46,247 nucleotides of DNA from Gemmatimonadota bacterium (GCA_003697105.1 RFFQ01000168.1:1-46247); one strand, 5' to 3'; shown: positions 15,601-44,743, counted from the first letter of the stretch. The notes: generated by a model from the letters alone, not told the origin. Numbers and translations are program-made.

Positions 15601-18600
15601 GATCCGGTTGGGTTAAAACGGTCGAACCCACTACAATGGAATCCACCGCCGCCGGACGGGTATCATAGGTGAAATTCACAATGGATGTGCCCGGACTAAA
15701 CCCATTATTATCCACGGGGGTAATTTCCACGGTGTAAAGTCCATCTTGCGAGCCATCTTCCAGACGCGGGGTATCAAGTTCCCAACGCAAGACCACCGTA
15801 TCTCGACGACCCGGCGTAAATTCCTCAAATAATTGTTGCCCGTTCACTAAATTACCATCAGGATCATACAACCGGATGGTGGAGGCTTCCACATCGACAC
15901 CGACCCCCTGATGATCGGTAATTGTTGCCGAAACGGCACTTAAATTGGAGAAAGTACGGAAGCGGTAAACATCCCCAAAACCAAAGCCGGGGATAGTTGG
16001 GGTCACCATCAACTCAACTCCTGAGCCAACGGCATAGGTATCCGATTGGTACACCTGACCGACCCGTCCACGATTGCGTTGCAACCCGGCCAGAGAACCC
16101 CGCACGGTGTAAGTGGTATCACTGGTAAAGCGCACTTCCCAGCGTTGGGAGGGGGTATCAGCCCCGACGTTCCGCACGGTCAACCGCCCATTACCGCCCG
16201 TCACACTGCCGTAATTCACAAAGACCGGTTCTGAAGCATAACTATCCCCATTGATCACTGCCCCATCTGCCGGACCGGACGCTAAAATCTCGGGCGGTAC
16301 AAAATCATAACCGATGCTGAAAAAGACCGTATCTTCTAGCGTATTGGCGTTAAAATCGACCAAATCCAGCCGCAACTGGTATTCTCCATTGGTCAACGGG
16401 TCGGGCTGCCCGTTATCACGAAGATAGATAAACAGGGTATCCCCGCGGAACGCCACTTCATCGGGTTCAATGGGGGTTTCCGTGGAATCCAAGAGGGTGA
16501 TCGAACTAACAGCGGGATCGACGCCTGCGGTCTGCCATTGGTTCCCAACATCACGGAAATTCACCCAGAGGGTATCTACCGGGTCATCAATAATCGTAGC
16601 GTTATTGGGTGGGTAGGAGGCCACCACCACCGGCGGTTCAAAATCCCGCCCGTAGGTAAACCGGACGGAATATGCCTCGCTGTTCGTCCCGTAGTCCTGT
16701 AAACTCAGGATGAAAAAGCCATCCAAATTAAATTGGCGCAAGGTATCTCGTACCCCAAAACGCAAATGGTTCTCATCCGCGCTCACTGTTCCATTGACCT
16801 GTTCATTTTCAAAATAGAATAGAGGCGCGCTATTATCCGGGTCAAAACCGGTTCCGGCAAACGGAACTCTCTGTGATTCATCTTGGATTTCCGCCACAAA
16901 CCACGGTTGCTCTTCCTGACGGAGTGCGCTCAAATCTGCCGTAATCACATTTTCGCGCCAATTTGTCAAACTCAGCGTATCCACAATACTATCAGGATGC
17001 CCCACCGCAAAATAGACCGCCACCGGATACGGTGCTTCGGTATCAATAATAAATTCAGCGGTATCTACCGGTGCGGCATTTCCGGCGCCATCTTCTGCGT
17101 AGGTTCGCAACTGGTACACCCCATCCTGACTGCCATCCGGCACGCTACCCAACGGATAAATCGGCGGATCGGGCGTAAATCCCAGATATTGCGTATTGCG
17201 CGTTGCCGAGATTGTGGTAAAGGTAAACTCATCACCCGCATCGTAGGCGGCACCGTTGACAATAAAACTAAATGCCGGCGCACCGTCCAACAACACCACA
17301 TATTGTTCGTTCACATGGCCGGAAGCCTGATTTCCGGAGACCGTACCGTACACATTAAACGTGGTAGCGGTTTCCATGATCACCCGCCAATCTTCGGTAA
17401 CCAACCGTTCTGCGCCACCGGGTTCAATTTGCGGGTGTAGCATCGAGCCACTCGGTGTCGACATCCCTTGATCGTGGAAGATCGGCTCCGAAATAAACGC
17501 CCCATGCCCCGGCGCACTATAGTGGAAGTTCTGCCCGGATAGCGGGTTTGCGCTGATGTACGGCGGTGGCATGACGGAAATATAAGAAGCACCGTAATTC
17601 AGACCCACATTGGCATCGATTACCTCTGCCGCGAGGGTATCCAAATCCGCCAACCGGTCTGAAAAGACCACATCCCCATCTGCCGGAATCGTACCCACAA
17701 TTACCGGCGGAGCATTATCGAACGTGACTGAAATTTCAGTCTCATACGGGGGTGCCAGATGATTATTCAAATCTTGAGCGTAAACCGTTACGGCATAATT
17801 ACCATTGGATAACGCGCCATCTGCCGGAATCCAATAAAGCAGACTATCACCGATCAAGCCTTGATCCGCCGCCGGGAGCAGTTGATTTGAACCCAACGCA
17901 ACCACTTCCATAAAGGAAGCCGGGCTAAGACCCACCGGCGTCATATCCCGGTCGCGCACAATCGCATACAACGTATCAATTGGCGACCCACTATAGCCTT
18001 CGGGGATAGTACGAACCACCACCGGCGCGGCGTGGTCATACTGGTAATCAAACGCAACATCAATTTCGGCAATATTCCCTGCTCCGTCGATCAGGGTTAA
18101 TCTTAACATACCTTGACCATTTCCACCGGGGGCGCGATCAAAGGTATAAGCCAGTGAATCACCCGCGACCGTAACAACACCTACCGGCGATTCACCCACG
18201 AAGGGGTGATCAAAATCGACCGTTAGCGTTGACAGCCGGTGGTTCAATTCGCTGGCATCCGGCTGGACAGTCACTTGAATAGCGGTTGGGGTTGCTCCGC
18301 TAATTCGTTCGGCAAATTGTTCAAACACAAATTTATCGCCCAAATTGTATTGGGTGTTATTCGCCGCCGCTTGGACGGTATAGGTAAAACCTTCATTAAC
18401 GGTATAAGCCTGACCCACTACCTGATTCTCGGTCACCAATTCCCCATTTTGATAGACATCGTAATGGCGCGCGCCGGTAAAGATCAATTCCCAATAGATG
18501 TCACTTTCGGGGCTAACCGTGCTATTATAGACGAGTGACATCTGCCCTTGGGTTACCCGTCCGGCATTATCCACAAACGTGGGACGGGTCGCAAAGGTGG

Positions 18601-21600
18601 GGGTAACATTGCCTTCTGCGAGTTCGGTCACAATATTGAGTGATGCGGGTTGTAAGACCTGCGAACCCCAACGGAGTTCGGCAATTTCCGGCATTTGCGT
18701 ATCAATGGTAAAGGTCGTCGTATAGACCGGCGCCACATTGCCATTCCGATCCACCGGCGTGATCGTCATTGTGTAGTCACCATCGGCTAAGGGAGCATCC
18801 GGTACCAGCGCCACCCAACTAAAATTACTGCCAAAATTTGGTACAAATGTGCGAATGGTATCCAACGTGACATTGGTAATGGCAATCGTCGTGGCATTCA
18901 AGTCAATCCCGGAGCCACCATCATCCCCAAAAGCGACCGGGATCACGGTGAGTGGTTCGGCAACCGTGCTGAGATGAAAGGCATCATCGATGCTGTATCC
19001 CCCACCTGTGCCCCGAATGCGGAAGCGAATCCCATCACCGGTAGCAAAGGTGTTAGACTCATAAATTTGACCCACACGACCGTTCTGTTGGGGTCCGGAG
19101 ACCGACCCTTCCACCGTGAACGTGGTGCTGGTAATCATGGTAATGACCCAATCTTCTGTGGTGGAATAGGGCCCAACTTCCAAATCTTCCAAAATGGGGG
19201 TTGTGGGGTTCCCGGTATCCACAAAAATCGGGTCTGTCACATACAGATTCGCGCCGGCGGCAGTGCCATTTGCCGGAGCAACCGCCAGCACTTGCGGCGG
19301 AGTCACATCATATTGGAACGTAAATGGTGAGACCACCGTCGCACTATTGCCTTCCACATCCACCGCGTAAACCCGAATAAAATAGTCACCATTTTCCGCT
19401 TCGGTATCCAGCGGATCATCCAGAGAGAGCACTAAGCGACCGTTTGCCGGTTCAGGGGTCAGCGTGCCCGACAGCGCTTGCCCGCCGGCATCTTGCAGAT
19501 CGATATGGGAATGATCCCAATCGACACCGGCACCGCGCCCTTCACTCAATTCAGCGATAATCTGACCGATTTGCGATTGGACCAGCGAATCGGGAGCTGG
19601 AATAGTCCTTACGACCGGCGCCCGGACATCTAGATTGAAGAGGAAGGAAGCTTCATAAGCCCCTTGGATGGTATTTCCGGCAAGGTCGTAGGGTTGAACT
19701 TGGAAGTAATATTCTGCATTTTCGAGCGCTTCGACCGGTTCAAAATAGATCACGGTATCCCCAACGGCGGTTTTGGTACCGGAAATTTCCGCGCCGGTTT
19801 CAGATTCAAAAAGCCGTATAGTTGTCCGCACCACATCAATTCCGGACGCCTCTGGATGAGCCAGACGGCTCGCCGGTACCGGGTCATTCAGGCAAACTTT
19901 GATGCGGAAAGCGTTACCTAGAATGGAGTCCACAATGGCACCCGGTTGCGGGTAGAGACACGCCTCTACAATATCGGGGTCAATGGTATCAAAGATGAAG
20001 GCGGAGGTATCCGGCGGTGCTTGATTGCCGAGCGAATCCTGAGTTGTAACCACAATGCCATAACGCCCATCCGCGGAGCCATCAATCGGTAACGGTAAGA
20101 AGTTGAGTACCAAGAGGGAATCGCCCTGAGTCGTTTTGGTAACCGGCACACCTCGCCAGACATCGCCGGCAGAGAGTAGTGAATCCGCTGTTGGAATCGC
20201 CAGTTGGATGGTCGAGGTTTGGACATTCGCCCCAATGCCAATCCCATCATTCAATAGGGCGGAGACCGACGAAATGGGTTGATTTTCCGCACTATTCACC
20301 GGCGGAAGAGTCGCGACAACCAGTGGTGGTGTATCATCAAAGCGGAAGGTAGAAGTCGCGGTTGTGAAGTTACCGTCGCGGTCATAGGCCTCAACGGTGA
20401 AGGTGTAAGTACCGTCGCCTTCTAGAGCTTCGGTAAGGGTGAGATAGATCGTATTAATGCCATCGGTAGAGCGGACCCCATCCAGAGATTCACCGCTTGG
20501 GCTGAGCAGGGTGATGGCGGAATTTTCCAGATCGACACCGAAGCCGGGGTTGCCGAGATCACCGCCATCCTGTAGTTGTGCGGAAAGGACAAGCAACGAG
20601 TCCACGGCTTGGTTAAGCGCCGGATAAAACTGGGTGACGGCGGGTCCAGTGGTATCGCGTTCCATACGGAGGTTTCGTTCTGCCCGGCTGGGTACGGTTT
20701 GGGAGAGAGCTTGGGCAAGAACGATAATTTTATACGTACCTTCACTGAGTCTTCGTCCGTTGGCATCATTACCGGTCCAGAAGATGGTGTGCCCTTGGTC
20801 TTCCGTGGGGAAGCGAATACCGGCATCAATGGTTTGAAGGAGTTCATCAACGTAGTACGTGCCAAAGGTAAAGACATCGCCGGGTTCAAAGGGGGTAGTA
20901 CCGGAGTAGATGGCAAATTCCAGCCCATAAGTGGAATTCGTATAGAGACCTTGGTCAATGGTAAAGGTATCAACAATGGTATAAGCTGAACCGGTATCCC
21001 GATAAGCAAGTGCCCATTGGGTACCTTCAGCGGAGATAGCCTCCACGCGCCAGTCATAGGTGCGGGCGTTGGAACCATCGGTTTCTACGAGGGTCATGCG
21101 CCCTTTACCCGGAGAGGGGTTGGCTGATTGGAATTGAGGAATCGTGGCGGCGGTGGTGATGGAGCGGACTTCTATCTCGACTTCGCTTTGGCGGTCCACC
21201 TCAAAGGTGATGTCGGCACCGTGACCGTTTTGCTGGACATTTTCGATGGTGACGGCGACATCAATGCTGATATTGAGTTGTTCGGTAACTTGGCTGGTGA
21301 CACGGTTTCCAGCGACATCTTGCCCATCGATAATAAAGTTATAAACACCGTTGGGCATGGTTTCACCGTTGGTATTGGTACCATTCCAGCTGACAAGCCC
21401 ACCGTCATTTTCATCAGCGGAGAAGGTGAGTTGGCGGGTGATATTGGGGTCACTGGAATTAATGATGGTGATGGTACCAATGATATTTTCGGTGACGCCA
21501 AAGCGGAAGCGAATATTGCTAGATTGTGATGGAGGCGAATAACAGGTATAGAGACGTTCTCGCCCGAGCCAGACCGTGGGACAGACAGGCTCATCATTAT

Positions 21601-24600
21601 CGGAGTCAACGATAAAAGAGGGACGTTGATTATCAATGACAAACGTTCGTTGGATGGCAGATTGCCGCGAATCCGCCTGAATGATGATGGTCATGGTATC
21701 GGGGTCGGTACCGGGTTGATTGAAGTGGAAGTCATCGCTCGGGTCTTCTGGAGTACCGCCATCATGCGTGCCGTACCAGACAAGGGTATTTTCGCCGGAG
21801 TTATTGGGTGCTGGTGGATTGGAGCGAGCCACGGTGGTAATTTGGATGAGATCACCGGCACGAAACGGAGTATCACCATGGACAACACGGAACATCAAGC
21901 GGGCATCGGTAAGAGGAGCGGTTTCGGGTTGGTAATTTTCATTGATCCAGTACAGTTGGTTGGTGGAAAGGGGTTGCCCGTTATTGACCGGGGTTTGGAT
22001 CCCATTTCCATCCGTGAAAGTAAGACGAAATTGGGTGGAATCATCAAAAGCGACCGTCCACTCGCCGGTGGGCGTCGAATCATCAGAGACGGCGAGGGTA
22101 TCCACAAAACCATTGCCGGTATTGTTAGGATTGATAGTCACACAGGAGACAAAGGCTTGGGAGGTATAGAGCCGCCGGAGGCGTCCATCTTCGTCATAGA
22201 GTTCAATTTGGACGAAGGAACCTGGTCCAGAGAGGTTATATAAGATTTGTGTCGAATCTTTAACACCATCAAAGATAGTTGGGCTAAAGGGGTCATTTTC
22301 AATACGGAGGTCACTGACATAGACCTGCTGGTTGACTGAGATATAATCAAAGACGAAAGTAGAAGTATAGATGCTTTGATTAGGTTCGGGGATGGCATTA
22401 TCGACAACAGTGACACGGATAAGGTAGCAACCATCATCATTGGGATCGGCAATTTGGTTATCTCCGATGAGAAGAAGCCGGAGTTCGCCAGTATTGGGAT
22501 CATATTGTTGTTGACCGTTTAGACGTCCACGCGGCCCGTAGAGTTCAATTTGAAGCAAGTCTTCATTGATACCGGAGCCAGTATCGGTAATAAACGCGGA
22601 GACGGAGTTCAGCGGTGTACTAATGTATTGTCCGCTGGGCGGATCAAATTCAACCACTTGTGGGTCATCAAGGTCTGGATTAAAGATAACGGAATCCACC
22701 TGAATGGTAGAGCGATTGAAAACTTCATCCCGGGCGCGGGCGAAGATATAATTGACGCCGTTGAGAAAATCGGGTGAATCTTGAAGGTCGAGGGCAATGG
22801 TAAAGAGCCCGGTAGTGGGGTCTGTGGTGGCAGTACCTTGGCTAATGGGTAGAATATCATCGTCCTCATCATCTTGGGTATAGCTTGGGTCATTATCGAT
22901 CCAGACTTCGACAGTGGTATTTCGTTCGCTGACACCGGTGACGGTAAGGGGGTCATCGTTCGTCCAGACGGGAACATCGATAAACTGGGGCGGTACGGGT
23001 GGGGTAACGTCCACCTCCATAATACCGGCGGTTTGAGCAAGGGTGCCGTCATTGACAAATTCAGCGCGGAGCTGATAGGTATAGGCACCGCTGGTCAGAT
23101 TCAGTCCGTCTTGATAGGGGTTCCAGGTTAATTGTTGGGAGATGCCGCCGTCCTGATAGATAGCAATTGGATCGGCACAGAGGGTATCAGCCGAATCGAT
23201 GGTCAGGGTATCAACGGGAAGACCGCGCGAGTTGTAAAGAATGACAGATACACAAGCATCCGCCGCTAAGGTATATTGCAGGGTAGAGGTTTCAAAGACA
23301 AAATCACCGTTGGGGGAGAAGGTTTCGGGCACAACGGTAATGTTTTGGATACCGAAGTTCTGTTGGATATCAAAATCAACGAACTGGGTATTCCGGTTTT
23401 GCAGGCTATCAAGGGCAGTGACCACGATATAGTAATCATCATCGGGCAAGGAATAGCCGTGTTGGACGTAGTATCGCATTTGCAGGCGACCATTGGGTAA
23501 CCGGGTTTTCACGATGGAGTCTGCTGGAATCGGGGTAATATCGGAAACAGGTCGCAGATAAAGTGTGGAAGCGTTGAATGCGGGACCGATACCAGCACCA
23601 TCATTGAGAGTAGCTTGGACATAGAGCGCGCCACTGTCATTTTCCGGAAGTTGAGAGACAACCGAGCCTTCTACCGGGGTGGTGGCGATACTGGGAGCAG
23701 AAACATCAATATTGATAATCTGGATGGCAGTGGTATCCTGCGAGGGATTCCCCACCGCATCTTCCGAGAAGAGTTGAAGCGTGTGCACTCCTTCGGAGAA
23801 ACCGACACCGCCTTGATCGACAATCATGCGGAATGAACCATCAAAAGAGATGGGGTCGGCATCGGAACGTGTAACGATACCATCAATGATAGGGATAACG
23901 GTAGCATTTGCCTCATCAACGGAGCCTTCCACCGTGATGTAGGAGGCACGTCCCCAGAAAGAGTTGGTGGATTGAGTCCAGATACCGGGTTCAATATCAA
24001 AGATTACGGGAGCGCCATCGGGACCAGTGAGGTCCACCAACACCGCGATTACACGTTCAATGGAAACATTTCCATCGAGGGTCGTTGCGCGGAGGCGTAC
24101 TTGGTAACCGCCGTCATCGGCGATACCATTGCCATCTGCATCAGCGGGACCATTGAGGGTCACTTCGCCGTTCCACAACTCCAGTTGCGGGTTGACCAGC
24201 GCATAGCGCAGGATGTTATTGGCGAGGGTATCAACCACATCACCTTCCAAAGTCTCAACAGTGACCGTCATGCGGGCGTTTTGAGAGATTTCATACTGAA
24301 TGTATGTGCGGTCATAGCGGTTATCGCCATTGGGACTAAACGGATTAACAGTGGCTGTCGCATTGGCAATGGTGAGTTCTGCAACCAAAATATTGACCGT
24401 ATCGGAAGCGGCACTGCGGTTACCGACGGCATCCTCCGCATAGGCAAAGATGCTGTTATAATCATCGGCAAGCAGGTTCACCGTTTGGCTGAAATTCCCA
24501 TTGAGTGGGTCCGCCGTTAAGGTCGCGATTTCTTCCAGTGATCCTCCAGCAAGGCGGTATAGATAGACGGTACTGTTCTGTTCGGCATTCCCTTGCACGG

Positions 24601-27600
24601 TGTAAGTGGGTTCAGAAGTGGTGATCAGGCTATCGGTATTAGCCAGAGTTGGTCGTGCTGGGGCTTGGGTATCCGTGCGGACACTCCGCTGGGCAAACGC
24701 ACCGGTACCGGCAGTGGTACGGGCAATAATGTCAATCAGATAGGCTTTGGTGGTATCAGCAGGAACCGCCATTTCACCACTTATCCCGGGCTGGGTGTAC
24801 GTCCCGTTCCAAATGATATTTTGGGGATTGAGAGCTTCAAACGCCTGCCGCTCAGGGCTTTGGTAAACAAAATTATCGGGGTCTTGAACATCACGTACTA
24901 CAATCTGCACCGAGCAATCTTGTGACACATTAAAGCTGATTATTGTTTGATCATACAACAAGTCACCATTTGGGCTGAATGGATTCGGCGAGACCGAAAT
25001 GTCACTCAGGTTCATGTCACTCAAACTAACTTGGCGTACAACGGAGTAAGTAGGTCCGTTGCCAAACACGTCATATGCCCGCGCGATCAGGTAGTTTGCT
25101 GAATAGGGTAACTCGACCCCGCTAAATAGGAATTCACCAGTATTCGCGTCGGCAGTCGTTTCCCCCAACGGGATGGGCTGGGTGAGATCGCCGGTTTGGG
25201 GTGGAATCAAATTATTATCATCATCGATAAATAGTTCCACACGCGATTCTCGTTCGGCGGCACCCCGCACATCAATCGTCGCCGAGGTAGTGGGGCTGGG
25301 CAGATTGGCGATAACCGGTACGGCAGGTGGGCGGCGGTCGATTTCCACCGAGCCAAGTCCAGTAGCCGTCAAACCATCTTGGGTGAGCGTTACCCGAAAA
25401 GCAAAGGTGCTGTCGTGCCCATCCGGTACGACATACTGCCCGGAATTGTTTGTACCATCCCACTCAACGGTTTGTGGATTGTAAAACGCAAATTGCTGGT
25501 CACTCACCACCAGATTTTTAAGCACCGGTGGATTATCGGGGTTCGTCTCGATATCGACAATCTCCACACTGACGACACCATCAATGGAGATGTCATAGTT
25601 GAGTTCGGTGGTTTCATAGAAGCCATCTTCATTACCGGGGGCAAAGGTCACCGGAATTGCTTCCAGATTAGAGACATTTACCGGGCTAAGGGTGATGACC
25701 TGTTCCACCGGACTGCTACTATTTCCAACCGGATCGCGGGCAATCACCCGTAGGGTGTCATCGCCGACTTCCAGTTCCACACCGGGGAATTCAAAGCGAC
25801 CAGTCTCATCATTGACGGAGGCTTCTCCGAGCAGGTCGAATCCATCCGAAGAGGGTGTATTTAGGTAGATTTCGATTGTAGCACCCGGTTCGGCAGAGCC
25901 GGAGACAGTCACTGGCGACGAGGTTCGAGGGGAAGCTATCGCATCCAATACCGGCGGGTCTGGTGCGAACACATCAATATAAACGGGAGTTTCAATCTGC
26001 CCAAAGAAATCATCATTGACTTCATCATAGATATCCAAAATAAACCGGTAGTTGAACAAGCCGGGGTCTTGCCACGCGTAATCACCGGTAAAGAAGTTCC
26101 GCCCATCCCACCAGACTTCATGTCCTTCATTTTGGTTTTCGACGAAAAACTCATAAAAATCACCCGATGTAGCGCCGGTCAAAAAGTCAACGGGTTGGCT
26201 GCCGGTTAGTGTAACCACCCGCACCCGGATATTCGCACCTTCATTCGTGGTAAAGCGCACCCGGGCTCGATCTGCGTAATTATCCCCATTGGGACTAAAC
26301 GGATTCGGCACGACCGGCGGATCGAGGAACGCAATTTGGGCGGTACGGCGGTACTTCCGCACTTGATCCACCGGCGGCGTTGCCGAGCGGTTACCGAACG
26401 GGTCAACCGCGAAGATGAAGAAGAAATTCGCCCCTTCATTCACAGGAATGCCTGAAATTGAGAAAGTGCCCAGGTCATCAGCCGTACCTTCCGCAACCAG
26501 TTGCGGGTTCGTATTATCCAGATTGGCAAACAGACTATCATCATCAACATAAATTTCAATTGCCGAACCGGATTCCGTTGCTAACCCTTCAATCGTAATT
26601 TGATCCACATTGACAATGTAACTGCCCGGAATGGTGCGCGTCACAAACGGAATGGGGGGCGGTGCATTATCCACATTGACCACACCCCGCACACTGGCTA
26701 ATGCGCCACTGGTTCGGGCGGTAATCCGGTAGAAGAAAGGTTCTTCCCGATTTTGGGCGACATAAAAGCCCAGTGAATCACGCCCGTTCCAGCCAACCGA
26801 TTGGGTAAATCCCGGAAAGTTAAAGGTGTAATCTTGCAACAACCGAATTTCCTGCCCAAACGAATTTTCAATCGCCACCCGCACCGAACAATTTTGTGAC
26901 ACTTGGTATTGAATCTGAACACTATCCAAAATAGTGTCGTGATTTTGGGGAGAAAAGGTTTCGGGTTGGGCAGAATGGTCTTCAATCCGTAAATCGGTCA
27001 GGATCACCGCCCGTGGAGTTGACGGATCGGAGACATTTCCCTGCTCATCTGTTGCCACAGCAAAGAGGTAATTTGTGCCCACATGAGGCGAACCGGTATT
27101 ATCCACCAGATTTACGCCGGTAATCGTAAACGTACCGGTAATACCATCGGTTGTACCCGTACCTTGCAACGTGCGCGGGGTAATATCGCCACTATTGCTG
27201 AACGTCGGGTCGTCATCCACGTAAATTTGGATAGTGGTACCCCCTTCGGCGGTACCAAAGACATCAATACTCGAGGTGGCGAAAGACGACCCCGCTTCCG
27301 GTTCGATAATAGCCGGTGCGGGGGGTTCATCCGTATCAATAATCGCGGTGGTGACATCATCCGCGCTAAAATCACCGCTGGTGGCAATCACCCGGATCAG
27401 ATACGCCCCATCCGCCACAACACTACCGGCATTATTCCGCCCATTCCATGCAAAGGTTTGCGGGCTGAGGACAGCATACTGGCGACCGAGCAAGGTGTCC
27501 AGAACGGCATTCGCCGGATTATCAATCGGTGCAATCCGAACCCGAATATCGGCATCCTGAGAGATACCATAGCTAACCGTTGTAAAATCGGAACGTCCAT

Positions 27601-30600
27601 CACCATTGGGGCTGAACGCATTGGGTGTCGCACTGATTTCCGTGATAAAGAGATCGGTCAAGACGGCCAGAACTTTGGTCGAAATTGGACCGGTATTGAA
27701 GTAGGCATCCGTGGCACTTGCCCAGATATAGTTTGTGCCGATTTGGAGGGGCACAGAGGCTTCAAATACACCGGTCTGGGCATTGGCGGTGGTTTCACCC
27801 ACCAAAACCGGATTGACGAGATCGGTGGTATCGGGATCGGTGTAAATTTCAACGATTGCGTTCGGTTCTGCTGTTCCGCGCACGGTAATGGATTGAGCCG
27901 TAGCATACGTGGTATCCCCCGGAGCGGGGAAGTTAAAGACCGGTGCGGCAGGCGGTGTCACATCTACAATCACCCGCTGGCGGGTCTGGACGGTATTATT
28001 TCCATTGCCGACCGCTTGGATAAAGAAGAAGTAATCGGTCACATTCGGCAGAATCGATGCGGGTGAAGGTGCCCATGTCACCGTTTGGGGATTAATTTCC
28101 GGATCGAGCATGACATTATTTAGCAAGGTGGCACCGGGTAAGTCGTTGAAAATCCCGCCACTGTAATACTGCATTTTCACGGTCACCAATGCCGCTTCAC
28201 TGATTTCAAAACTGAGCCGGGCTTGTTCTAAGATGTTGTCGCCATTCGGGCTGAATGCTTCCGGTGGAGCGGGTACAACTGCCGCATTTTCCACCACCAG
28301 TCCACTAATTTGAAGTTCATCCGTTACAGCGAAACCGGATTCATTGTAGTACGCATCCCGCGCTTTCACATGAACAAAATTACTGCCTTCATTGAGTTCA
28401 ACCGGTGCTTCCCACTGTCCGGTTAGCGCATCCGCGGTGACCTCCGTTACAAAATCCGTATCCGTGGGGGGCGCGTTGGTATCGGTGCGGTACAACAGCA
28501 CCGTCGCCGAGGGTTCCGCCGTACCACGCAAGGTAAACGGATTAACCCGAACCAATTGCGCCGCACCGTTGGTGATTACCGGCGTCCCCGGAGCCGTGCG
28601 ATCAATTTCAAGCGGTACAAACACTTCCGTAAACACATTGCCATCCAGAACCGATTCCGCTCTGAATTTGAGAACGTATGGTCCGGTTGATAACGTTTGG
28701 GAGGCACTTCCCGGCACCTCGCACGTGCCACTGACACGACCGCGACCATCCCACACAAAGGTGTGCGGATTCAACTCGCTCTGGACCCCATTCTGTTGGG
28801 CAACAAAGCGGTAATTCTGCCCGAGACTATCCGCCCAGCAGATGCGGACATTGGCATCTTCGGAGACATCATACGTGATCGTGGTGGTGCGCGGAAATCC
28901 ATCTGGATTGAAAACCGGCGCGGAAATGGACGTTACCGTAAAGCTAATATCCGTTAAAATAACTTTGCGAACATAATTATCGGTAAACGTACTGGGGTTC
29001 GAGGGTGCTAACGGCGGATCGGATAGATTACCGGCCACATCGCGTACCCGCGTAAAGAACCAGTTTTCGCCGGGTTCAACCGGCACGGAGGTTTCAAAGA
29101 AGCCGGTTTGCGCATCGGCGGTCACTTCCGCTACCAGCACCGGCGCCGCGGCGGTTTCCGTCGAGCCCGGCGGATAGAACGGATTTTGACGCGGATTATA
29201 ATCATCATCCCGATAAATATAGACAATTGAACTGCGTTCTGCCGCGCCTTGTAGTGTAATAGACGTTTCAGAGGTGGAGCGCACCGGTTCATTGAGCAAA
29301 GCCGCCGCCGGCGGAACCAGATCGCTGGAAACCGTACCGAGTACTTCGGCACGAACCGGTGAGCCGCTCGGGTTCGGGCTAAGACGAATCCGGTAGCGAA
29401 AATCTCGCACTTCCGCATTGACGGGAATCGTAACCGACCCATTGGGGAATTGGATATCCAGCGGCACACCCCCTAATTGCAGACCATCGCTATAACTACG
29501 TAATTCATGATCCCATTCGGTAGGTGTCGTCAGATCATCAAATTGAATCCGCACATACGCATCTTGCGAAAGTTCATAGCTCAACACCGTATAATCGTTA
29601 AATCCATTACCTAAACCATTGCCACTTTCCGGGCTAAACGGTGTCGGCAACGCACTATGGCTCGTTACATTGAGGATCGAAAGAACAACTGTATCCGCCA
29701 CCGAAGGTGCCGAAGTATTAAACACCGCATCGGTTGCCGTTACAAACAGGCCATAGGGGATTCCCGCCTGCGGGATCGTCACCGGAATCGAAAAATTGCC
29801 CACCGCATCGGAATTACCGCTGTTGACCACGGTGGTATCGCTCCCCTCGCTATATAGATAAACCTCCACGGTCGAATTGGGGTCTGTCAAGCCTTCCACG
29901 TTGAGATTCGCTGATGGAATAATGGGGTCTAGGTCGAATAATGTCGGGCGAGTCGGAGCCCGAAGGTCCATCACAAACGCCCCAAAAACCGGCGGGGATA
30001 CGCGCCGCTGATCGCCGGCGGTGATTCGGAAGCGGTAGATCGTCTCCGCACTATCGATAATACCTCCCGCCCCATTCCAATATTCGCGGAGGGTGACCCC
30101 ACCCGGGCGATACTCTCCTTGAATCAGCGTATCGACGGGAGTTCCACTTTGATTCAAAATCACAATAGTGACTGAATCCGCACCTGCATCGGGAGTAATC
30201 ACGTATTCCACGGCGACGCTATCCAAACGCCCATCCGCATTGGGTGAAAAGACTTCTGGATTGGCAGTGGCGGAAACAACACCCACCTGCGAATAAAAGA
30301 CAAATCCCGTATCTGCCGGACTCGGTCCATTGAAGACCGCATCAATTGCTTCCACAAATAGATAATTATCTTCCGTATCTTCTAACAATTGAACGCCATT
30401 GACGGTAAAATTACCAGTAATATCCTCCGCAACAGCCTCATTGGTCTGTTGGATGGGTGGAGTCGCATCATTCCCCTGTACAAAAAGGGAATCATCATCT
30501 ACCCAAACCCGGATAGTGGCACCGGGTTCAGCAACCCCAAACACATCCACCGTTGCTTGAATCACCGGACTTGCCGGACGGGTGCCCGAAATACGCGGTT

Positions 30601-33600
30601 GTGGTGGAGCTTGGTTATCCACAATAACCGACTGGGTTTGCGAGAAGACAATATCGCCCACCCGCACCGTCACGGTGTAGAGAAAAACGCTGGTCGAATC
30701 TTGCGCGACAAAATTCCCATTTTGATCCCGCCCATCCCAGACCACTTGCTGCGGGTTTGCGGCGGCATAACGATTCGAGGAATCGATCACGGCAATGGGC
30801 GTATTGGGGTCCTCGATACGGAAAATGGAAACGCGGGTAGAGCAATCTTCCGAAACATTAAAGGTAATGGTGGTAAAATCAAACAATCCATTTGTATCTG
30901 CCGGGGAGAAGGTAGCCGGCGTCGCGGTTAGATTTTCAATGCGGACTTCGCTCAACGTCACATGGACGGGAGTGCTGAGGGTATCGCTATTGCCTACCGC
31001 ATCGGTTGTAATAACGGTGATATAGTTATTACCTACTTCTAAATTGACATTTTCAGTGGAAAATAAACCGGTCACATCATCAGCATCTTGGATATCCCCT
31101 TGATCTACCGGTGGGGTGACATCACCCGGTTGAACAAATAGCGAGTCATTATCAACAAAAATTTGGATACTGGCGCCGGCTTCCGTTCGACCCGCCACCC
31201 GAATCGGATTTTGATTGACAAAAATATCCTGCGGTGGATACGTCACAATCAAGGTCTGTGGGGCTTCGGTATCAATCACAAAGGTACCCCGACCGGAGGT
31301 CGTGAAGTTTTGCAATTCCGCCACGATGAGGAATTGGTACACCCCATCGTCTAAAATCCCATCATTATTCGCATCGTAAGTCGGATTATTGACCCAAGCG
31401 GCGTTCAACGTACCGTCCCACGTTTCGGCGCTGTTTAGCACTTGAAATCGTTGTTGCCGCTCAATAACCGTTGCCAGCGTATCCACATCGGCCAAGTCTT
31501 TGATATAGACCGAAACAAGGGCATCATCCGAAAGTGAATAGGAAATGGTAATAAGGTCAAATAGCGCATCCCCGTTTGGCGAAAATCGCTCTGGAGTGGC
31601 TTGTTGGTTGCTGATGGCTAAATCGGTGAGGCGCACCCGTAAGGTATCCGAATACCCGGAGTAATTGCCGACCGGGTCTAAGGATCGCGCCGAAATATAG
31701 TTATAACCGCTGGCAAGAGGGATATCCGCCTCAAACCGTCCATCCACATCGGCAACCGGTAAAGTGCCTTCCAGCAAATTACGCCCGTTGTCATTATCAA
31801 CCCAAATTTCGATTTCTGCCCCAGGTTCAGCGCCACTCCCGCGCAAAACAACCGATTCCGTGGAGACCACCGAATCTCCCAAGACGGTAATCAGCGGAGT
31901 CGGCGGCGACAACAAGTCCGCTTGGACAAATCCCGTACCGGTTGCCACCAGGTCACCCACCTGTGCAGAGACCACAAACCGGTACAGCGTTTCGGAACTA
32001 TCCGTGGCGGCAATCTGTCCGGCGTTGTTTTGCCCGTTCCAAATTTCATTGATAACGACACCCCCTCGCCGGAACTGATCCGTAATCAGATTGCGCACCA
32101 GCGTATCCGTTTGTGCATCATAAATATCGATAGAAACGGATGCCCCGTTGGGATCAGAAATTTGATACTGAATATTGGTCACATCCACAATTCCGTCGCC
32201 GTTCGGGCTAAACGGGTCGGGTAAGGCTTGTACGGAAGCCAAATTCAGATCGGCAACGGTTAAAATAATAAAATTAGAAAATCCGGATCGATTTCCAACC
32301 GGATCGACTGCGCGGGCATAGATTGAGTTCACGCCCTGATTGAGGGTCAGATCGGCGCTGAATGTTCCATCTTCATTGAGGGAAAATTCGCCCTGTAAGA
32401 GGCGCTGAGAATTTTGGGGCGTGCTATCCCCATCAGCTTCAACCCAAATCTGAACTACGGTTGTGGGATCAAAATCCGCATCAATGGGCACAAATCCATC
32501 GATGGTCAAATTGGTCACAGTGAACAATGTATCTTCTGGGGCGATAAGTACCGGTGCTTGGGGCGGAGTGCGATCCACCGTGACATAGTCTTCCCGATAG
32601 ACTTCACGTTGCCCATCATTTGCGATAATACGGGCACGGTATAAGCCGGAGGCAACCAATGCTCCGGTGCTATCCTGACCATTCCAAATACGCCGGTTGG
32701 GGTTATTGCCAATCAACTGGTATTGGGCGGGTAAGCGGTGCACCAGATTTCCACTGGCTTCGTTATAAATATGGACCGAGACTGAGCAATTTTTGCTCAG
32801 GCTATAGCGAATCACCGTACTATCTTTGACACCATTTCCATCGGGTCCGAACGGGTTGGGGGAGATCGCCAGATCATTGATCTGGATCGTGCTTAAATTG
32901 ACCGTTCGTAGCGCCGACCGGGCGGACGGATTCCGTTGGGCATCGCGTGCAATGGCAAAGAGGTCATTATCCCCTTCCACCAATCCCGTAATCGTAAACT
33001 CAAAGTTTCCATTGGTCTCGTCTGCTGTACCCGAACCCATGAGGGTGCTATCACCATTGGCTTCCAGCCGGTAGATTTCCACCGTGGCGCTGCGTTCGGC
33101 GGCACCTTCCACCGTAATCGAGGAGGTCACTACCGGTGAGGCGGGCGCCGCAAAGAAGGGGGGCGGCGGGGGGCGGTTATCCACCCGAATAACATTATCA
33201 TTGGAGACAAATTGATAGTTTTCAATCGATCCCTGAATCGTAAGCTTAAACGTTGTGTCAATCGGTGCACCTACTGCGCTGCCCGGCTGGCCGCCATTTA
33301 CACGCCCATCCCATTGGATAAGTTGGTCGCCGGCGGTCTGGTAAACGGGACCATAACTCCACACCAAATTGGTTTCCGTGGCGTCATAGACAAAAACCCG
33401 CACACTACAATCCGCACTGAGCGTATATTCAATTTGGACACTATCGTTGAAGGCATCCCCATTGGGTGAGAAGGGGTTCGGCAACAGGGTGACATTTGCA
33501 ATACTCAGCTCCGTTAGGGTCAATTGGACAACATTGGAATAATCCGTCGGGTTACTATTGCCCACCGCATCCACGGTGATACCGTAAACATCATAATCCC

Positions 33601-36600
33601 CGGGTTCATCCAGCGGAACACTGACCTCAAACTGACCCGTCTCCGTCACATCCACGCTGAGAGTCTCCACAATGATATTGTTTGCCGGGGTCGAATCACC
33701 AAACGCTTCGATAAAAATTTGGACCGTAGCGCCCGGTTCAGCGGAGCCGGTCAATGTCACCGGACTTTCGGAAACTGTCGTGAATAGCGGTTGGTTGAGC
33801 TGCGGCGCTTCCGGAGCAGTTAAATCCACTTCCACCAGCGCGGTTTGACTCACGGGGACCGTATTTGCATTAAATCGAGCACTGATCAACACGCCAAAGA
33901 CATCACTGGAATCAACAAACCCATCGCCGTTGGGGTCCACCTCATCTTGTAGGGTTTGGGTGACGGCATCAACCGAGCCGTCCCAAATGCGAGAGCGCAG
34001 CGAGTTCGGTGTTTCAGCAACCGATCCATCCAGAATCGTCTGAATAACACTATCGACACTGCCCTTAAAAATCTGTAAGGTCACAAAAACATCATTCGCT
34101 TGGGCAGAGTTGATCTGGTAACGGATAAACGTCCGGTCTAGTACATTGTTGGAATCTGGGCTAAACGGGGTCGGTTCAACGGTGAGGGTACCCACAGAGA
34201 GGTCAGAATAAAATACTTCGTAAGGTGCGATCATCCGGGTGGGTCCGTTACCGACCGCATCTAATGCTTGAGTTGTGATGTAATTGGTAATACCGGGTAA
34301 CAAGTTCACCGTACCGCTGTATGTGCCTGTGGGGGACAATGCGGTTGTGGTGGCACTTTCCTGAAGAATTGGTGGGGTATTATCCAACGAATCCACAAAA
34401 ACGGCATCATCATCCACATAAAATTCGACGGTTGCTTCCGGTTCGGTAATCCCTTCCACGAGAATCGACGGTTGGGTCACCGGTGATGCGGGGACGGTAC
34501 GATTGATGGAGATCAAGCCCGGGGCGCGGGTATCCACTCGCACCACACCACTGGCAGAGACCGTGGTGGTGGAATCGGTCGCCGCCACAGCGGTAATTTG
34601 GTAGCGATAAAGCCGGTCGGTGCCATCCGGGGGATAAAACGGTGCGGCATAATTCACGGAATCTCGCCCATCCCAGAAGAGTTGTTGGCTACCAACCGCC
34701 GAAAATTGAAGCGTGCTATCCAGCAAAGTCCAAACGGGCGCTGTGCCACCGACTTCAAAGATTTGAACGGTTACATAGGCATCCAACGACAACTCATAAC
34801 TGATAACGGTGCTATCAACCACCCCATCGGCATTCGGGCTGAACGGATCGGGTTCAACGTTCACATTTGCAATATTGAGCGGGCTGAGAATCACGCGGAA
34901 CGGATCCGACGCCACAGAGGTATTCCCTTGCGGGTCGGTTGCCAGTGCAAACACATAATTATTGCCCGGCACCAAGTTTACACCGCTTTGTTGCCACTGA
35001 CCCACATTGTCGGCGGTTGTTTCACCGATCAGTTGGGGTTGGTCGCCGCGTTCGGTGGCTTCGGTAAAATTATCATCATCATCAACCCATACTTCAATGG
35101 TGTTATTCGGGTCTGACACACCTTCGACAGTAATCGGCGTCTGGGTAACGGGTGAGCGGGGGATAGATCGGGCAATGGTCGGTTGTACCGGAGGTTGGGT
35201 ATCGATTGTGACGGCTAACGAAGTGGAAGCAGAAAGCCCGCTGGGCAAGTTCGCATCAATCCGGATCAGATAAAACCCATCATCAGCGATACCATTGTTA
35301 TCCGCATCGGCATAGGTGGAATCTGTACGCCCATCCCACCGGACGACATGCGGATTCAGCACTTCGTAGAGAAATGTACGGGGCTGAAGTGTTCGCACCA
35401 AGCGTCCATCGGGGAGCTCGACTCGCACCGTAACCGAACAATCTGTGCTGACTTCAAAGGTAACGGTGGTGCTATCAAAAATCCCATCCCCTACCGGCAC
35501 GGCACCCGTCGCCGGACTAAAAATAGACGGCACAGCTTCAGGGTTATTGATCGTCAAATCCGGGGAGAAGAAGGTATATACTTGATTGGAAGCACTCGCT
35601 CGATTCCCTACGGCATCCCGGGCAATCGCGTAGATAAAGTTATCACCGGTAGTACTGGCAGATTCTGACTCATACAGTTGCACCGGTGTCGTAAACGAAC
35701 CTTGCTCCGGGATTTCCACAATTTGGCGCAACAAAGGTGGAGTAAAATCATTGGACTGGTTGATCACACTATCATCATCCACATAAACATAGGCAAAACT
35801 ACTGGCATCGCCCGCACCTTCTACCGTAATTGGATTGACTGTTGTGACAGAATCCGGTTGTGTTAGCCGAATGATTGCCGGTGGTACATTATCCACAATC
35901 ACCGGAGCGAACCCGGTCACCGTAATGTTCCCATTCTTCAACACAATTTCAAAACGAAACGGGTGATTTTCCGTATCCGGAACATTGATACCGCTAACCG
36001 AGGTATCCGGTTGCCACGATTGGACATGCGTCACTCCGCCGATCCGGAAAGCGGACGTCAGCAACGTATCGACTCTCGTTCCGGTGAGGGCATCTTGCAC
36101 ATAAATACTGACACTGTCCACATCTTCGGAGAGTGTGTATTCCAAAAAGGTTTCATCCAGCGTATTATCACCATTCGGACTAAATACAAACGGCGTCGCG
36201 ATAGCCTCATCAATATTTAATTCGGTTAGGCGGATACGCAACAAAGTGGAGGCACTGGCCGCGGAACGATTCCCGGCGGCATCGGTCACAAAACCGTACA
36301 CATCATACGATCCGGCGCCTTCTAATTGGAAGTCGAGGGTGAATCGACCGCTCTCGGTGAGTGTACCTTCTGCCCCCGTTGGAGAGACGGCTAACTGGTT
36401 GCCAATAATGCCATCTCCGTCATTTTCCCGGTAGAGTTTCACGAACGCGTTCGGTTCCGCATATCCTTCTAGTTGGAAGCTATTCAACGCCGTGAGGGTA
36501 TCTTGAATCCCATCGCCATCCAAGTCAAACGAAATATGGAGAGTATCTGGTGGGATGTTATCGACCCGGACAAAGCCCGGTGCACTTTGAACCACCGTGC

Positions 36601-39600
36601 CATTATCATCTAAAGCATAGACGATATACCGATATTGGATGTCAATGTTACCGGGATTTGCCGGCGCCCAAACCAGTGAATTCGGGTTATTGACCACAAA
36701 TTGTTGTCCGGTACGTACGGTATCACGGATGCTCGTCGCATTGATCCGGTTAAACACAATCCAAACGGAATCGGCATCAGCACTGAGATTGTAAATAATC
36801 CGGGTTTGATCGCGGAAACCATCATCATTGGGAGAAATGGCGTCTAATGACTGCCCCAGCAGTTCTATGGAGAGTGACGTGCGATAAATACTATCCGGTA
36901 GGGAGAATGCCGAGACATTCCCCACAGGATCAAGGGCACGCACAATAAAGCGGTTCCAGCCGGTATCTAAGGGGAAATCCGTCACTTGCCAGACGCCGGT
37001 GAAGGGGTCTGAGACGGGGTTTGTTCCCACATCCACCAGTGTGGTATCCCGAGAGCCGTCCTCATTCACGGTAATGCGATAAATTTCGACTTCCGCCCCG
37101 CCTTCAGAGACCGCGCCTTGCAAAGTGGTGGTTTCGCGAGTGGTGGTTTCGTCCTCAATGGTCAAAACAACTTCATCCGGGGCTTCTCGGTCCACCCGAA
37201 TGGTGCGGTACGCCACCGCTTCTACGCCAGTACCCGCCTGACGCGCCGTAATTCGGAAGAAATAGGTCGAATCCTCTCCAGCACTAAAGCCGGCAGCGGA
37301 TAACCCTTGTCCTTGCCAAATCCGCTCCTGCGGGTTATTCGATTCAAGTTCAAAGGCGTTCGGCGTTTCAACTGCCGCGACAACACTGCTCGGTGTGCCA
37401 TCAGGGTTGATCCGGAGCACGTCCACTGAAACCGTCGCATCATCCGAAAGGTTGTATGATAGCAACGTCCGATCAGCAAAACCATCCCCATCCGTCGGGT
37501 TTGGGAGACCCGGGCTGAACGGGTTGGGAGAAATACTGTTCACACTGATGTTAAACGAGGATAAAATCGCCACGAGTGCCGTATCCGACGGGGCAAATAG
37601 TACGCGCGAGATGGGTGAAATATTGCCCACGGCATCAACTACCCGCGCCGAAACCAAGTTCCGTCCATCATAAATCGGGACGGTCGTCGCGGTAAATTCT
37701 CCCAACGGGTCAATGGTAATCCCCGTTAGACTATCGACGCGTGCAATCTGATTTTCATCGGTATAGTGGGTGTAAATCCGCAAACTGGCACCGGGCTCTG
37801 CCGTACCGCTGACGGTAATCGGTTGACTGGTAAAAAGCGAGTCAGAAAATGGGTTTAGCGTCGGTGCGCTGGGCGCTTGCAAATCCAAGACGACTTGTAC
37901 CTGTTCCGAGATAAAATAGGTATCGTTAGAATCTTGTTTAGCGGTAAATCGGATATTGTACACCCGTTGTTCACCCACCAGCGCGGGGAACGCACCAGCG
38001 GGACCGCCCCACGTAAAGCTATTGATGCCTGCCGGTTGGTTAATGAACCCGGTACCTCCGACCGTCACACCGGTAAACGCATCTTCTATGGTCACCGCTA
38101 CCTGCGCCGCTTGAGACAACCCATATTGCACCCGCACGGAATCCCGAATATTATCCCCGTTCGGGCTAAACCGGTCAAACAGGGCGGTGGGAAGTTGGGT
38201 AAATGAAAGTGAAATTTTGCGCAAGAAAATGGGGTCCGAAATGGCACTATCGGCAACGGTCTGCCAGCTATTAAACATTTCATCAGTCACGGTGACAAAC
38301 ACATAATTCACCCCATCATTCAACTGATCCGGGTTGATCGACGCGGTAAAAATACCATCGTCATCGCTGATTACTGAGGTGAGAAACACCGGTGGGGTGG
38401 AATCCGAAGTTTTTTGAACAAATGACGAGTCATCGTCATCAAAATAGAAATCAATGGTGGCGTTGACTTCTGGTAAACCGCGTTGATCGGTTACCGTTCC
38501 CCGTAACAAGATGGTTTCCGTAATAATGGAATCTGGCTGGATCAAAATTGGTTTTGCTGACGGTGCGTTATCTAATATTAGGATACCTTCGGCACTGGCT
38601 TGCACCGCATCGGGGTCTTCGATATCAACGGCTAAAATTTGGTATCGCAGGGTTTCACGATGGTTATTGGGTGGGGCAACGGCCGCACCGCCTCCAACAC
38701 CCCAATCCAGCCCGCGCGCATAGCCGTTCCACGTCAGTTCTTGCGGATTTTCGGATTCCCGCTGAAGAACTCGCGTTTCCGGCAGACCCGGAGTTTGGGT
38801 TAGGACGGTTCCATCTTCCCGCGTAATCGTCACGGTCACATTAGCATCTTCGGACAAATTATACCGGAAGATGACATTATCCCGCAAGTTATCGCCATTC
38901 GGGCTGAACCCTGGGGTGAGGTCCCGGAACGTCGGTGAAATCGAGGTCACATTGATGTTCAAGGTGGAAAGATTTGTCCGGTAGTTGGCATCATTTTTCT
39001 GCACGGTACGCAAGGCTTCAATGGAAGAGTTACCATAAGGGTCTGTAGCAACTGCCCAAAAATAACGCCATCCTTCTGGATTTTCATCCAAAGTCCCTAA
39101 CCGGAGCGAGACCGCAGCGGTAAAAAATTGACCGGTCTCATCCGCAATAATGTTCCCCGTAATTGCCTGCAACGGCAAAGAACCGGAAGTTTCATTGACA
39201 AACAGAGAATCATCATCCACATAAATTTGAACTTCGCTACCGGGTTCAGCAATTCCCGCAATAGAGATCGGAAAAGAGGTTACGGAGGGTCCGGCAAAAT
39301 AACCACTATCAGTAGCCGCATTATAGGGAAAGTCCACATCCAGAACAACCGGAGCACCCGCAATGTGGGTAATTTCCGGAATATCTGGATCGTTCGTATC
39401 GACAATAAATGACGCGGTGGGTTGAGAAACCGGCTGTCCGTTCAAATAGGCAATCGCGCGAATGATATAGAGGCTATCGGTTTCCGCACCCCCTTTGATA
39501 TAGTTTCGGCTACCAATTAAGGTAAAAGCAGTTGAATCTAAGACCGTTCCCCCATTGGTTACCAGTTCTTCACGGCTACCATCCCATGCCGGAGTGGTGA

Positions 39601-42600
39601 TGGTACCTAAAGCGGATAATTTCGGGGTCCAACTACGAGGTAAAATCGCAATGTGATCTCCATCAACCGTCTCAATCCGCAAGCGGACACTATCGGCATC
39701 ACTGGTCAATCCGTAGGAGAATCGAATATCATCCACCACCCGGTCACCGTTGGGAGAAAAGACCGGTGAAACCGCCGTGATCACTTGAAAATCTTGTAAT
39801 GCCAGATTGGACAGACTGACAGTATCGATTGCCGACGGTACAGATTCATTGCCCACATCATCAATCGTCGTTGCATAAATTAAGCAGGTATCGGCAAAAC
39901 CAATAGGGACTCCGGTGACGGTCCACTGCCCATTTTCATCCACGGTACCTTCATTATCGACTTGTACGGTATCAAAGAGTGCCCCATCGAGCCGGTAGGC
40001 AACATAGACCCGCACATTATTGGTGCGTCCTCCGGCAGAGGGGTCGGCGCTTCCGGAGACGTCGATGGGGGTAAAGGTCGGGAATCGCGGAATATCTTCC
40101 AATAAGGGGGGGGCAGGAGGGCGATTGTCGGCTTCGACAATAATATTGGCACTTGCCGTGAGTGGTGTTCCACTGCCCACTTGCTTTTCGGCACTGACCA
40201 CGATCCGGTAATAAGTCAATTCATTTTGTGCCGTCAACACATAGGCGGAATCCCATGTCACCGTCTGCAAAATACCGCCTGCCATTAATTGGTTGGTGAT
40301 AATGGTATCGGTATTCGCTGGAGTCGGTGAGAAAAAGTCGGAAGCAACAATCGTCACCCGAGCAGAATCAGAAAGGGTAAACGAAATCGCGATGTTATCC
40401 TTAAAATTATCACCGACTTTTTGCCCTCCGGATTCATAACCTGGGGAAAACGGGTTCGGAGCGCCTACTAACCCGGAGATACTTAATTCCGATAAAATGA
40501 TAGAATCTGGAGCAACACTGCGGTTTTGCACTTCATCTGTTGCCACCACAAATACGTAATTTAAACCTAAATTCAGTTGGACACTGGGAACAGAAAATTG
40601 CCCGGTGATGGCGTCTGTCGTCACTGGACCAAAACGGGTTTGGTTGCCATCGGTGAGATCATCCAAGACGGGATCATCATCCACATAAACAAAAATTTCG
40701 GCATTGGGGTCACTCGCCCCGTTAACAGTGAGGGGGGTTTGGCTAGTAACCGAGGGTAAACTTCCTACGGTCAAGGTGGGTGCCGTATTATCCACTACGA
40801 CGGTTTGTGTACTCGAACCCCGTTGGCCCAGGTCGTTAATTGCTGAGATGCGAATAATATAAACCCCATCATCGGCAAACGTACCCAAACGAGTACGCCC
40901 ATCCCAGAAAGGCGTTTGATTGATAACCGGCTCAAAAGCGGCAAACACGCTATCGCCATTATCATTGACAATAGTTGCTAACGTATCACCGAATAAGGTC
41001 AACACATGCACCCGCACGGAGCAGTTTTGGGAAACATTGAAGGAAACCGAAACCTGATCAAATAGCCCGTTTGTATCGGCTGGGGATATCACTTCCGGTC
41101 GAACAACGGCATTGGTAATATTCATCGAACCCAACACAATCGTAAACGGTGCAGACGGGTCGGACAGATTACGAACATCATCAATCGCTTCGGCAAAAAG
41201 GTAATACGTATCGCTGACAGTACCGAGCTCCACATTGGGAACGGTGTATTCACCCGTACTGGCATTGGCGGTTGCTTCTCCACGAAACACCGCGGGAGTA
41301 ATATCACCGGCATCATTAAAATTCGGGTCATCATCCACATAAACACGAACCGTTACGCCGGCTTCTGCCGTTCCTTCCACCGTGATAGGCGAAGCCGTCA
41401 CCAACGTGTCATTTAGTGCAATGAGCGGAGGTTGTGGAGCTTCATCATCCGCAATAATAAAGCCTTGGGCAACAGCGACCGCATTATTGGCATCACGGGC
41501 AGAAATTTCGTAGCGATACACGCTAACGGTACTATCTGTACCTAATACGCCATCAGCATTATCTCGCCCATCCCACTCAATCTCATAAGTAATCCCCTGA
41601 AACTGTTGGATAAAATCCCCCGGAGTTGTTTCCGGATAGTACCAAACAAGGGAATCCGTACCTGCTTTATAAATTTGAACATTGACTCGCGCATTCTGAG
41701 ATAAGCTATACGTAATCCGGGTATCATCTAATCGTCCGGCGCTACTGGGGTTATTTGGGCTAAACGGATTCGGAGTAACCCGCGCATTTTGAATATTGAG
41801 AGAACTAAGTGCCACTTGTGTCCGGCTGCCGACGGTTCCACCATTGGGAACAGAGGCATTATCCACCTCATCCACCGCCACCGCAAAAATATAGTTGATG
41901 CCTTCATATAAAAGGGTCACAGAGGCGTCAAAACGGGTATTTTCAAGCGTGGTAGCGGGGGTGGTTGCAACCAATTCGGCAGGCGTCAAATCACCCAGGT
42001 CATTCGGATAGGTAAACAGGGAATCATTATCCACATACAGCCGTACGATAACATTTTCATCAGCTTGCCCTTCAACCGTGATCGGATTTTCATCAGTGGG
42101 TGAGGAGGGTTGGAACAGCGTCGGCTCGGTAGGAGGTTCATTATCCGATATCAGCAAAGTGGGTACAATCGCCCGAATTTGCGGGTTTGCTGGTGGATTA
42201 TTGATGTCAAAACTCTGTTCATCTTCGGCATAAAATTCGACCTCAAATAATTGAATACCGGTTGTGTCCAACGGGCTGGTGATATTTGGGTTCAACCCGC
42301 CGGCATAGAGCGAGTCATAGGGTGTCCACCGGTCAAACAGGGTAGTTCCACCGGAACGCCGGTTCCAATAAATGGAATCCACCACCACCGCAGGAGTCAC
42401 CTGCGTATCCACAAATTTAATCATTACGTACGCATTTTGGGAGAGTTCGTAACGGATGGTGGCGGTTTCATAACGACCGTCACCATTGGGGCTAAACGTG
42501 GTGGGGGTCACTGATGGGTTTTGAATATTCAAATTGCTGACAATCACGGTATCAATCGCCGAAACAGGGGAGGTATTAAAAACCTGATCAACGGCCGTCG

Positions 42601-44743: not shown

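Follow-up and report, generated by a model that had tools for sequence, protein, structure and literature searches.

A giant gene and its neighbours

The window, that is the whole stretch of DNA analysed (46,247 nucleotides of a Gemmatimonadota bacterium, GCA_003697105.1 RFFQ01000168.1:1-46247), is largely taken up by one gene on the minus strand. A single uninterrupted ORF of 13,855 aa runs from 3326 to 44893 and contains the whole repeat region (20650-44650, or aa 82-8081 in the numbering of this ORF, used throughout). The giant's start is likely M51, at position 44743, because a signal-peptide-like sequence (MKPNNTLRF...AMPAFAQ) follows it and because it agrees with the aligned N-terminus of an orthologue in a related genome, G001. 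In both proteins the signal peptide leads at once into a first copy of the repeated domain that we call A, with the motif form FSPNNDG in the giant. The features of the locus are collected in Table 1.

Table 1. Features of the giant gene and its downstream partner (window coordinates)
Feature	Position	Strand	Remarks
Giant gene	3326..44743	-	~13,805 aa + stop codon; ORF open to 44893
Predicted Sec signal peptide	44645..44743	-	aa 51-83; by eye from sequence
First A-type domain	44447..44632	-	aa 88-149, i-E 2.1e-8; directly behind signal peptide
Main A-B array	24032..43159	-	aa 579-6954: 28 A-B units + one extra A (aa 6840-6954)
29th A-B unit	22676..23356	-	aa 7180-7406, 180.8 bits
Last, more divergent A copies	21260..22324	-	aa 7524-7642 (3.3e-8), aa 7785-7878 (7e-5)
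C-terminal half	4694..20596	-	aa ~8100-13400; Big_13/Big_3-type Ig domains + inserted ~75-aa module
Terminal FlgD_ig / sorting-domain-like domain	3329..3688	-	aa 13736-13855
PorV/PorQ-family outer-membrane barrel gene	2318..3250	-	310 aa; immediately downstream of giant

Behind the first A domain, at window 43700-44440 (aa ~150-400), lie two stretches with W..VP.A.YY.VYR-like motifs that resemble fn3-type domains; this region may be the distal head of the giant. The 29th A-B unit is preceded by 225 aa of other Ig-like sequence, and the divergent A piece at aa 7785 scores 23.5 bits with FlgD_ig. A Pfam scan in chunks gave 181 bits for Big_13 and 60 bits for Big_3_3 in the C-terminal half. There, the Big_13-type domains at window 6824-19156 (aa ~8580-12690) are interspersed with 11 or more copies of a module of ~75 aa (TEDWxIxF...F.V.GSVSG.Q...Y...F.F.V...GD.F.F.T); the Pfam chunk scans gave Ig-type families and no other family here. 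Near the C-terminal end, at 5594-5986 (aa ~12970-13100), a Pro/Glu-rich low-complexity spacer breaks the Ig series.

The giant's terminal domain exceeds the Pfam cut-off for FlgD_ig (29.4 vs. 27 bits) and matches an HMM of the genome's own C-terminal sorting domains (CTDs), described below, at 21.5 bits (i-E 7e-9); it falls under the cut-off of TIGR04183 (12.7 vs. 23 bits). The barrel encoded downstream matches NF033709 at 118.6 bits (cut-off 90). This is a match to the subfamily model only, the equivalog cut-offs for PorV, PorQ and PorV2 being missed, and its listed matches at E <= 0.01 include no PorP/SprF-family model. This 4.18-Mb genome encodes PorU (649.9 bits) and an SprA_N protein (71.6 bits). 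In it, 12 loci pass the NCBIfam cut-off for the PorV/PorQ family, and 73 or more ORFs terminate in a type-A-like sorting domain. The locus is flanked by an SfsA nuclease gene (1505-2311, 252.6 bits), and the contig end cuts through an ISL3-family transposase gene (1-627, 185.7 bits).

We searched 40 other genomes, only two of them from the same class. One, G001, belongs to a different family. Its orthologue of 10,047 aa, with ~20 A-B units, and a similar barrel gene of 310 aa behind it (contig C15, 8367-39593, L015-L017) repeat the gene order of the window; the other, G002, gave one weak match. The pairing of giant and barrel is thus conserved in one relative.

An alternating two-domain repeat

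To describe the repeat we aligned 16 regular units, split them into an A part of ~110 aa (PxxFSPNGDGxxD...WDG...Y...VxVD) and a B part of ~100 aa (DxxxPxxP...ITVxGxAEP...DxVGNxS), and made an HMM from each. With them we counted 29 B copies (i-E <= 6.6e-14) and 32 A copies (i-E <= 3.3e-8, between aa 88 and 7642), plus a further A at aa 7785 with 7e-5. At i-E <= 1e-3 a second HMM, built from the 32 copies, raised the A count to 34 (32 confident and two weaker copies) beside 29 B, in the order AAB(AB)n...AABAAA. Every B is preceded by an A, and 29 of the 34 A copies are followed by a B; these alternating pairs, about 30 in number, account for half of the giant. The manual count of an earlier note on this DNA, about 35 FSPNGD...W(D/N)G domains with some 30 followed by a Big-like domain, was therefore close. 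So was its period of ~210-230 aa, with most units starting 204-244 aa after the one before and outliers reaching 284, and the motifs that it quoted recur in the consensus of the 29 units (PxxFSPNGDGxxD...WxG...Y...VxxDxxxPxxP...ITVxGxAEP...DxVGNxS).

The units share only 23-33% pairwise identity, and at the DNA level the array contains nothing beyond 30-45-nt motif repeats of 60-87% identity. Low unit identity and the shortness of the DNA repeats show that the array is ancient and not an assembly artefact; recent duplication and assembly collapse are both ruled out by the same observations. Conservation is seen at residues of the core and of the junctions (P, F, S, P, W and the terminal VxVD), and the loops between the motifs of A vary greatly in length and sequence from copy to copy. 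An AF2 model of one unit (pLDDT 94.7) shows A and B as two beta-sandwiches; A modelled alone with AlphaFold reached a pLDDT of 96.2.

Among known structures, B is matched at the profile level by 7dm0, a stalk repeat of Bap (E 5e-12), and by 2yn3, from SiiE (1.3e-5). Pfam recognizes Big_6 in 11 of the 29 B copies, and profile similarity thus identifies B as a probable Big_6/Bap-type stalk domain. The giant resembles Bap and SiiE-type stalks in this profile similarity and in its overall plan of tandem stalk plus anchor, but differs in its stalk, where a strictly repeated heterodimeric unit contains a FlgD_ig-type domain. Big_6 is treated as a stalk domain of fibrillar adhesins in the main text of Monzon et al. 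(PMC8286594). As set out there, such adhesins share with the giant a long tandem stalk (here 29 A-B units, Big_6 included) and a cell-anchor domain, for which the terminal FlgD_ig/CTD-like domain is the candidate here; the term FlgD does not occur in that main text. Pfam and NCBIfam chunk scans of the giant detected no adhesive family that could mark an adhesive head domain.

The A domain and the sorting domains of the T9SS

The earlier note likened the internal domain to type B and FlgD-type CTDs and proposed scoring each repeat with the models CHU_C, TIGR04131 and FlgD_ig. Scored singly against curated cut-offs (TIGR04131 35 bits, CHU_C 27, TIGR04183 23, FlgD_ig (PF13860) 27), the A copies gave little. 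None of the 32 confident copies reaches CHU_C (PF13585; maximum 25.0 vs. 27) or TIGR04131 (a match at E <= 0.1 in six, maximum 23.3 vs. 35), and only one, at aa 5748, reaches FlgD_ig (29.4 vs. 27; next best 26.0). At E <= 1, 13 of the 32 match FlgD_ig or CHU_C in Pfam. TIGR04183 likewise has no copy at its cut-off and any match at all in one (12.8 vs. 23), whereas all three control C-terminal domains from the same genome pass it (50.9, 41.4 and 35.5 bits). The high scores of 4,500-aa chunks (CHU_C 70, TIGR04131 67, FlgD_ig 58.6 and 79.8 bits) are sums over many weak matches. By curated thresholds, A is not a sorting domain, and the TIGR04131 and CHU_C cut-offs rule it out as a type B CTD.

By homology the outcome is different. 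Run over all 12,696 ORFs of this genome that extend from stop to stop and have 80 aa or more, the A HMM matched the giant and 73 other ORFs (E 1e-10 to 6e-4 for the latter). Each of the 73 has a single match, with 1-11 residues (median 3) left between its end and the stop. A profile-profile comparison (hhalign) of A with these genome tags gave a probability of 98.7% (E 4.4e-16, 75 columns), A having a 7-residue NGDGxxD insertion after PNPF(S/N)P. In the reverse direction, the HMM of the 73 tags matches 20 internal places in the giant at i-E <= 1e-3, and four internal A copies (44.0, 26.9, 26.3 and 25.4 bits) outscore the giant's terminal domain on it. The A profile also matches the FlgD structures 7eh9 and 7bhq, at E 9e-4.

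Structural comparison points the same way, by a small margin. The top match of A is the PorU C-terminal domain (6za2; Z 11.9, rmsd 1.8 A over 95 residues, VIA-align), followed by the FlgD_ig domain of Vpr (8jmw, residues 705-802; Z 11.3) and by generic FnIII domains at Z ~10, only slightly below PorU; the PorZ C-terminal domain scores Z 9.5. Foldseek with A alone placed a C5a-peptidase Fn domain first (TM 0.70), with PorU at 0.62 and FlgD (3osv) at 0.58-0.60; with the two-domain A-B model it returned generic tandem Ig/FnIII proteins only. Together, the sequence profiles and models show that A is a true homologue of the T9SS sorting domains and of FlgD_ig, with an Ig-like seven-strand sandwich. 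The likeness to CTDs and FlgD was thus borne out by the genome-wide HMM, by hhalign and by the PorU, Vpr and FlgD matches.

The ends of the A copies argue against a role as a signal. With the type A sorting domain (TIGR04183 / PF18962) A has in common the homologous seven-strand sandwich and the elements PNPF(N/S)P, WDG and GxY; it differs in being internal, in carrying the NGDGxxD insertion, in its low score with that model and in lacking the terminal M-V-L-L-K/R strand. In the 73 genome sorting domains this strand is well conserved (M at -5 in 58, L at -3 in 65, L at -2 in 61 and K/R at -1 in 67), and neither this motif nor its variant M-V/I-L-L-K/R is found at the end of any of the 32 internal copies. 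These finish in xVxVD and pass straight into the xxxPPxP of B, with no free C-terminus; all 32-34 A copies are internal (aa 88-7878 of 13,855). The N-terminal PxxF(S/T)PNGDGxxD of A is a signature of the type B sorting-domain family (TIGR04131 / CHU_C PF13585). Unlike members of that family, A is internal and has no copy at the cut-off, and the giant's neighbour belongs to the PorV/PorQ family, with no PorP/SprF match listed; type B domains are associated with a nearby PorP/SprF-family partner gene, according to PMC9143113. A review (PMC11611037) states that type B CTDs sometimes carry the label FlgD_ig superfamily.

One protein of the same genome carries an A-like domain at its very end. This 871-aa protein (contig C22, L018:870-4339) has three lamin-tail domains and a CARDB domain, with a terminal FSPDGDG-type domain that on its own scores 31.7 bits with FlgD_ig and 31.0 with CHU_C and that the A HMM matches best outside the giant. 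A barrel gene distantly like PorV/PorQ (59.9 bits, under the cut-off of 90) overlaps the gene of this protein. This is possibly an A-type domain serving as a terminal tag.

Internal A arrays in other bacteria

The earlier note took this type of domain to occur usually once, at the C-terminus. A search of 1.84 billion representatives with the A-B unit profile gave 35,224 matches and did not agree with this: among the best 150 of the 35,224, 132 are B-only arrays and 18 have 4-22 internal A copies. Some arrays among these 150 consist of A only, with a ~104-aa period, behind an S8 peptidase. An example is WP_010245240.1 of Acetivibrio cellulolyticus, an S8 peptidase with 15 copies that is named 'FlgD immunoglobulin-like domain containing protein'; in its cluster representative (P0078) Pfam finds 15 FlgD_ig stretches with CHU_C co-matches. 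In others (P0044, P0049, P0108, P0116 and P0143) the period is ~210 aa and the alternating partner of A is an Ig domain missed by the B HMM; P0049 terminates in a dockerin.

Acetivibrio cellulolyticus is Gram-positive and is not known to have a T9SS. With the A HMM of the giant its 15 copies reach 31-52 bits, and with the genome's tag HMM 34-66 bits, compared to 5-44 bits for the giant's own copies on the latter. Since the Acetivibrio copies match the tag HMM more strongly than those of the giant do, these scores argue that tag likeness belongs to the FlgD_ig superfamily at large and is nothing special to the giant. The occurrence of A arrays in the Acetivibrio protease and in the dockerin-ended P0049 likewise argues that such an array is independent of the T9SS.

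The giant is similar to these tandem FlgD_ig arrays (WP_010245240.1, for instance) in having the same type of domain, internally, in long arrays; P0044, P0049 and P0116 also have a ~210-aa period in which A and another Ig domain take turns. The arrays elsewhere are, however, mostly homotypic with a ~104-aa period, or have a partner unseen by the B HMM. They have 8-23 copies in 1.7-5 thousand residues, compared to 29 strict A-B pairs in a protein of 13.8 thousand residues, and the giant's single copies are so divergent that one in 32 passes the Pfam FlgD_ig cut-off. We found no paper describing internal FlgD_ig arrays in the main texts covered, although the supplements of PMC8286594 may list stalk domains; a literature search with FSPNGDG-type motif strings found no relevant paper.

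A proposed structural role for the array

We propose, with a probability of about 70%, that the giant is a fibrillar surface protein of the T9SS type, that the A-B array serves as its distal stalk and that A acts there as a structural module. The A domain, a member of the FlgD_ig superfamily, would share its ancestry with the T9SS C-terminal sorting domains and here be put to structural use. Alternating with B, it would form a rod of ~63 Ig domains, ~250 nm long at roughly 4 nm per domain. The strongly conserved PxxFSPNGDGxxD loop that opens each A may make the junction from B to A more rigid, perhaps through bound Ca2+. The giant would pass through Sec and then through the T9SS of this genome, and its terminal FlgD_ig domain would dock on the PorV/PorQ-family barrel encoded downstream, as PorU and PorZ do on PorV and PorQ. 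Docking at the barrel would leave the C-terminus proximal to the cell, with aa ~8100-13400 presumably forming the cell-proximal part of the fibre and the A-B array pointing outward. The negative scans for an adhesive head, the score of the terminal domain under the TIGR04183 cut-off and the narrow structural margin of PorU over FnIII domains weigh against this proposal. The Porphyromonas gingivalis pairs PorU-PorV and PorZ-PorQ, which belong to the attachment complex, resemble the present locus in that a gene for a protein with a terminal FlgD_ig/CTD-like domain adjoins a PorV/PorQ-family barrel gene. They differ in that the giant is a fibre of 13.8 thousand residues and not an enzyme or an LPS carrier. 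The earlier suggestion that a sorting fold was reused as a rod stands as far as the rod is concerned, a structural rod being the best reading. The direction that it implied, from sorting domain to rod, is without support because internal arrays elsewhere match the tag profile better and both kinds of domain belong to one superfamily.

The variability of the loops among A copies could also be taken as that of diversified binding loops, in which case the A domains would be ligand-binding modules (for carbohydrate, mineral or protein) and the array would adhere as a multivalent surface instead of being an inert spacer. FlgD_ig-type domains do occur as accessory domains in proteases and glycosidases (Vpr 8jmw, dextranase 5axg, C5a peptidase), which would fit such a role. 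Variable loops are, however, predicted equally by constraint on the fold only, conservation in the A copies falls on core and junction residues, and no binding-site conservation was found in them; we consider this explanation unlikely. It is more improbable still that the internal A copies are working recognition elements of the T9SS, either export handles that re-engage PorV/PorQ-type barrels or the translocon, or processing points for PorU. Their homology to the genome's tags, all 73 of which lie at a C-terminus, the four internal copies that outscore the terminal domain, PorU as the best structural match and the 871-aa protein with its FSPDGDG-type terminal domain beside a distant PorV-like barrel gene would all agree with such a function. 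Yet no copy reaches the TIGR04131 or TIGR04183 cut-off, none has the terminal strand motif or a free C-terminus, and the FlgD_ig arrays of Acetivibrio cellulolyticus match the CTD HMM more strongly; in these respects nothing favours the repeated handles or processing points envisaged in the earlier note. Because several internal copies score above the terminal domain on the genome-CTD HMM, they may retain a residual role in recognition. We think it very improbable that successive A domains are gripped by PorV/PorQ-type barrels or the translocon, as ratchet points for a 1.4-MDa rod or as lateral tethers along the outer membrane. A co-fold of an internal A (alignment A2) with residues 23-310 of the barrel gave a score of 0.04 (mark 0.32), which speaks neither way on binding.

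If internal A copies were recognized after all, this would be an internal and repeated use of a secretion signal thought to work C-terminally only, and would bear on how the T9SS transports very large cargo. Since similar arrays occur in many other bacteria, the giant is most likely an ordinary structural stalk. For annotation, the locus is a caution against reading sorting signals into CHU_C or TIGR04131 scores that have been summed over a giant repeat protein. It adds a protein of 13.8 thousand residues with a heterotypic stalk, and with a dedicated PorV/PorQ-family barrel, to a class in which only two other species were sampled. Within one genome, a single HMM picks up 73 terminal tags and 32-34 internal copies, which shows that the sorting tag of the T9SS and a common stalk domain are Ig modules of one kind.
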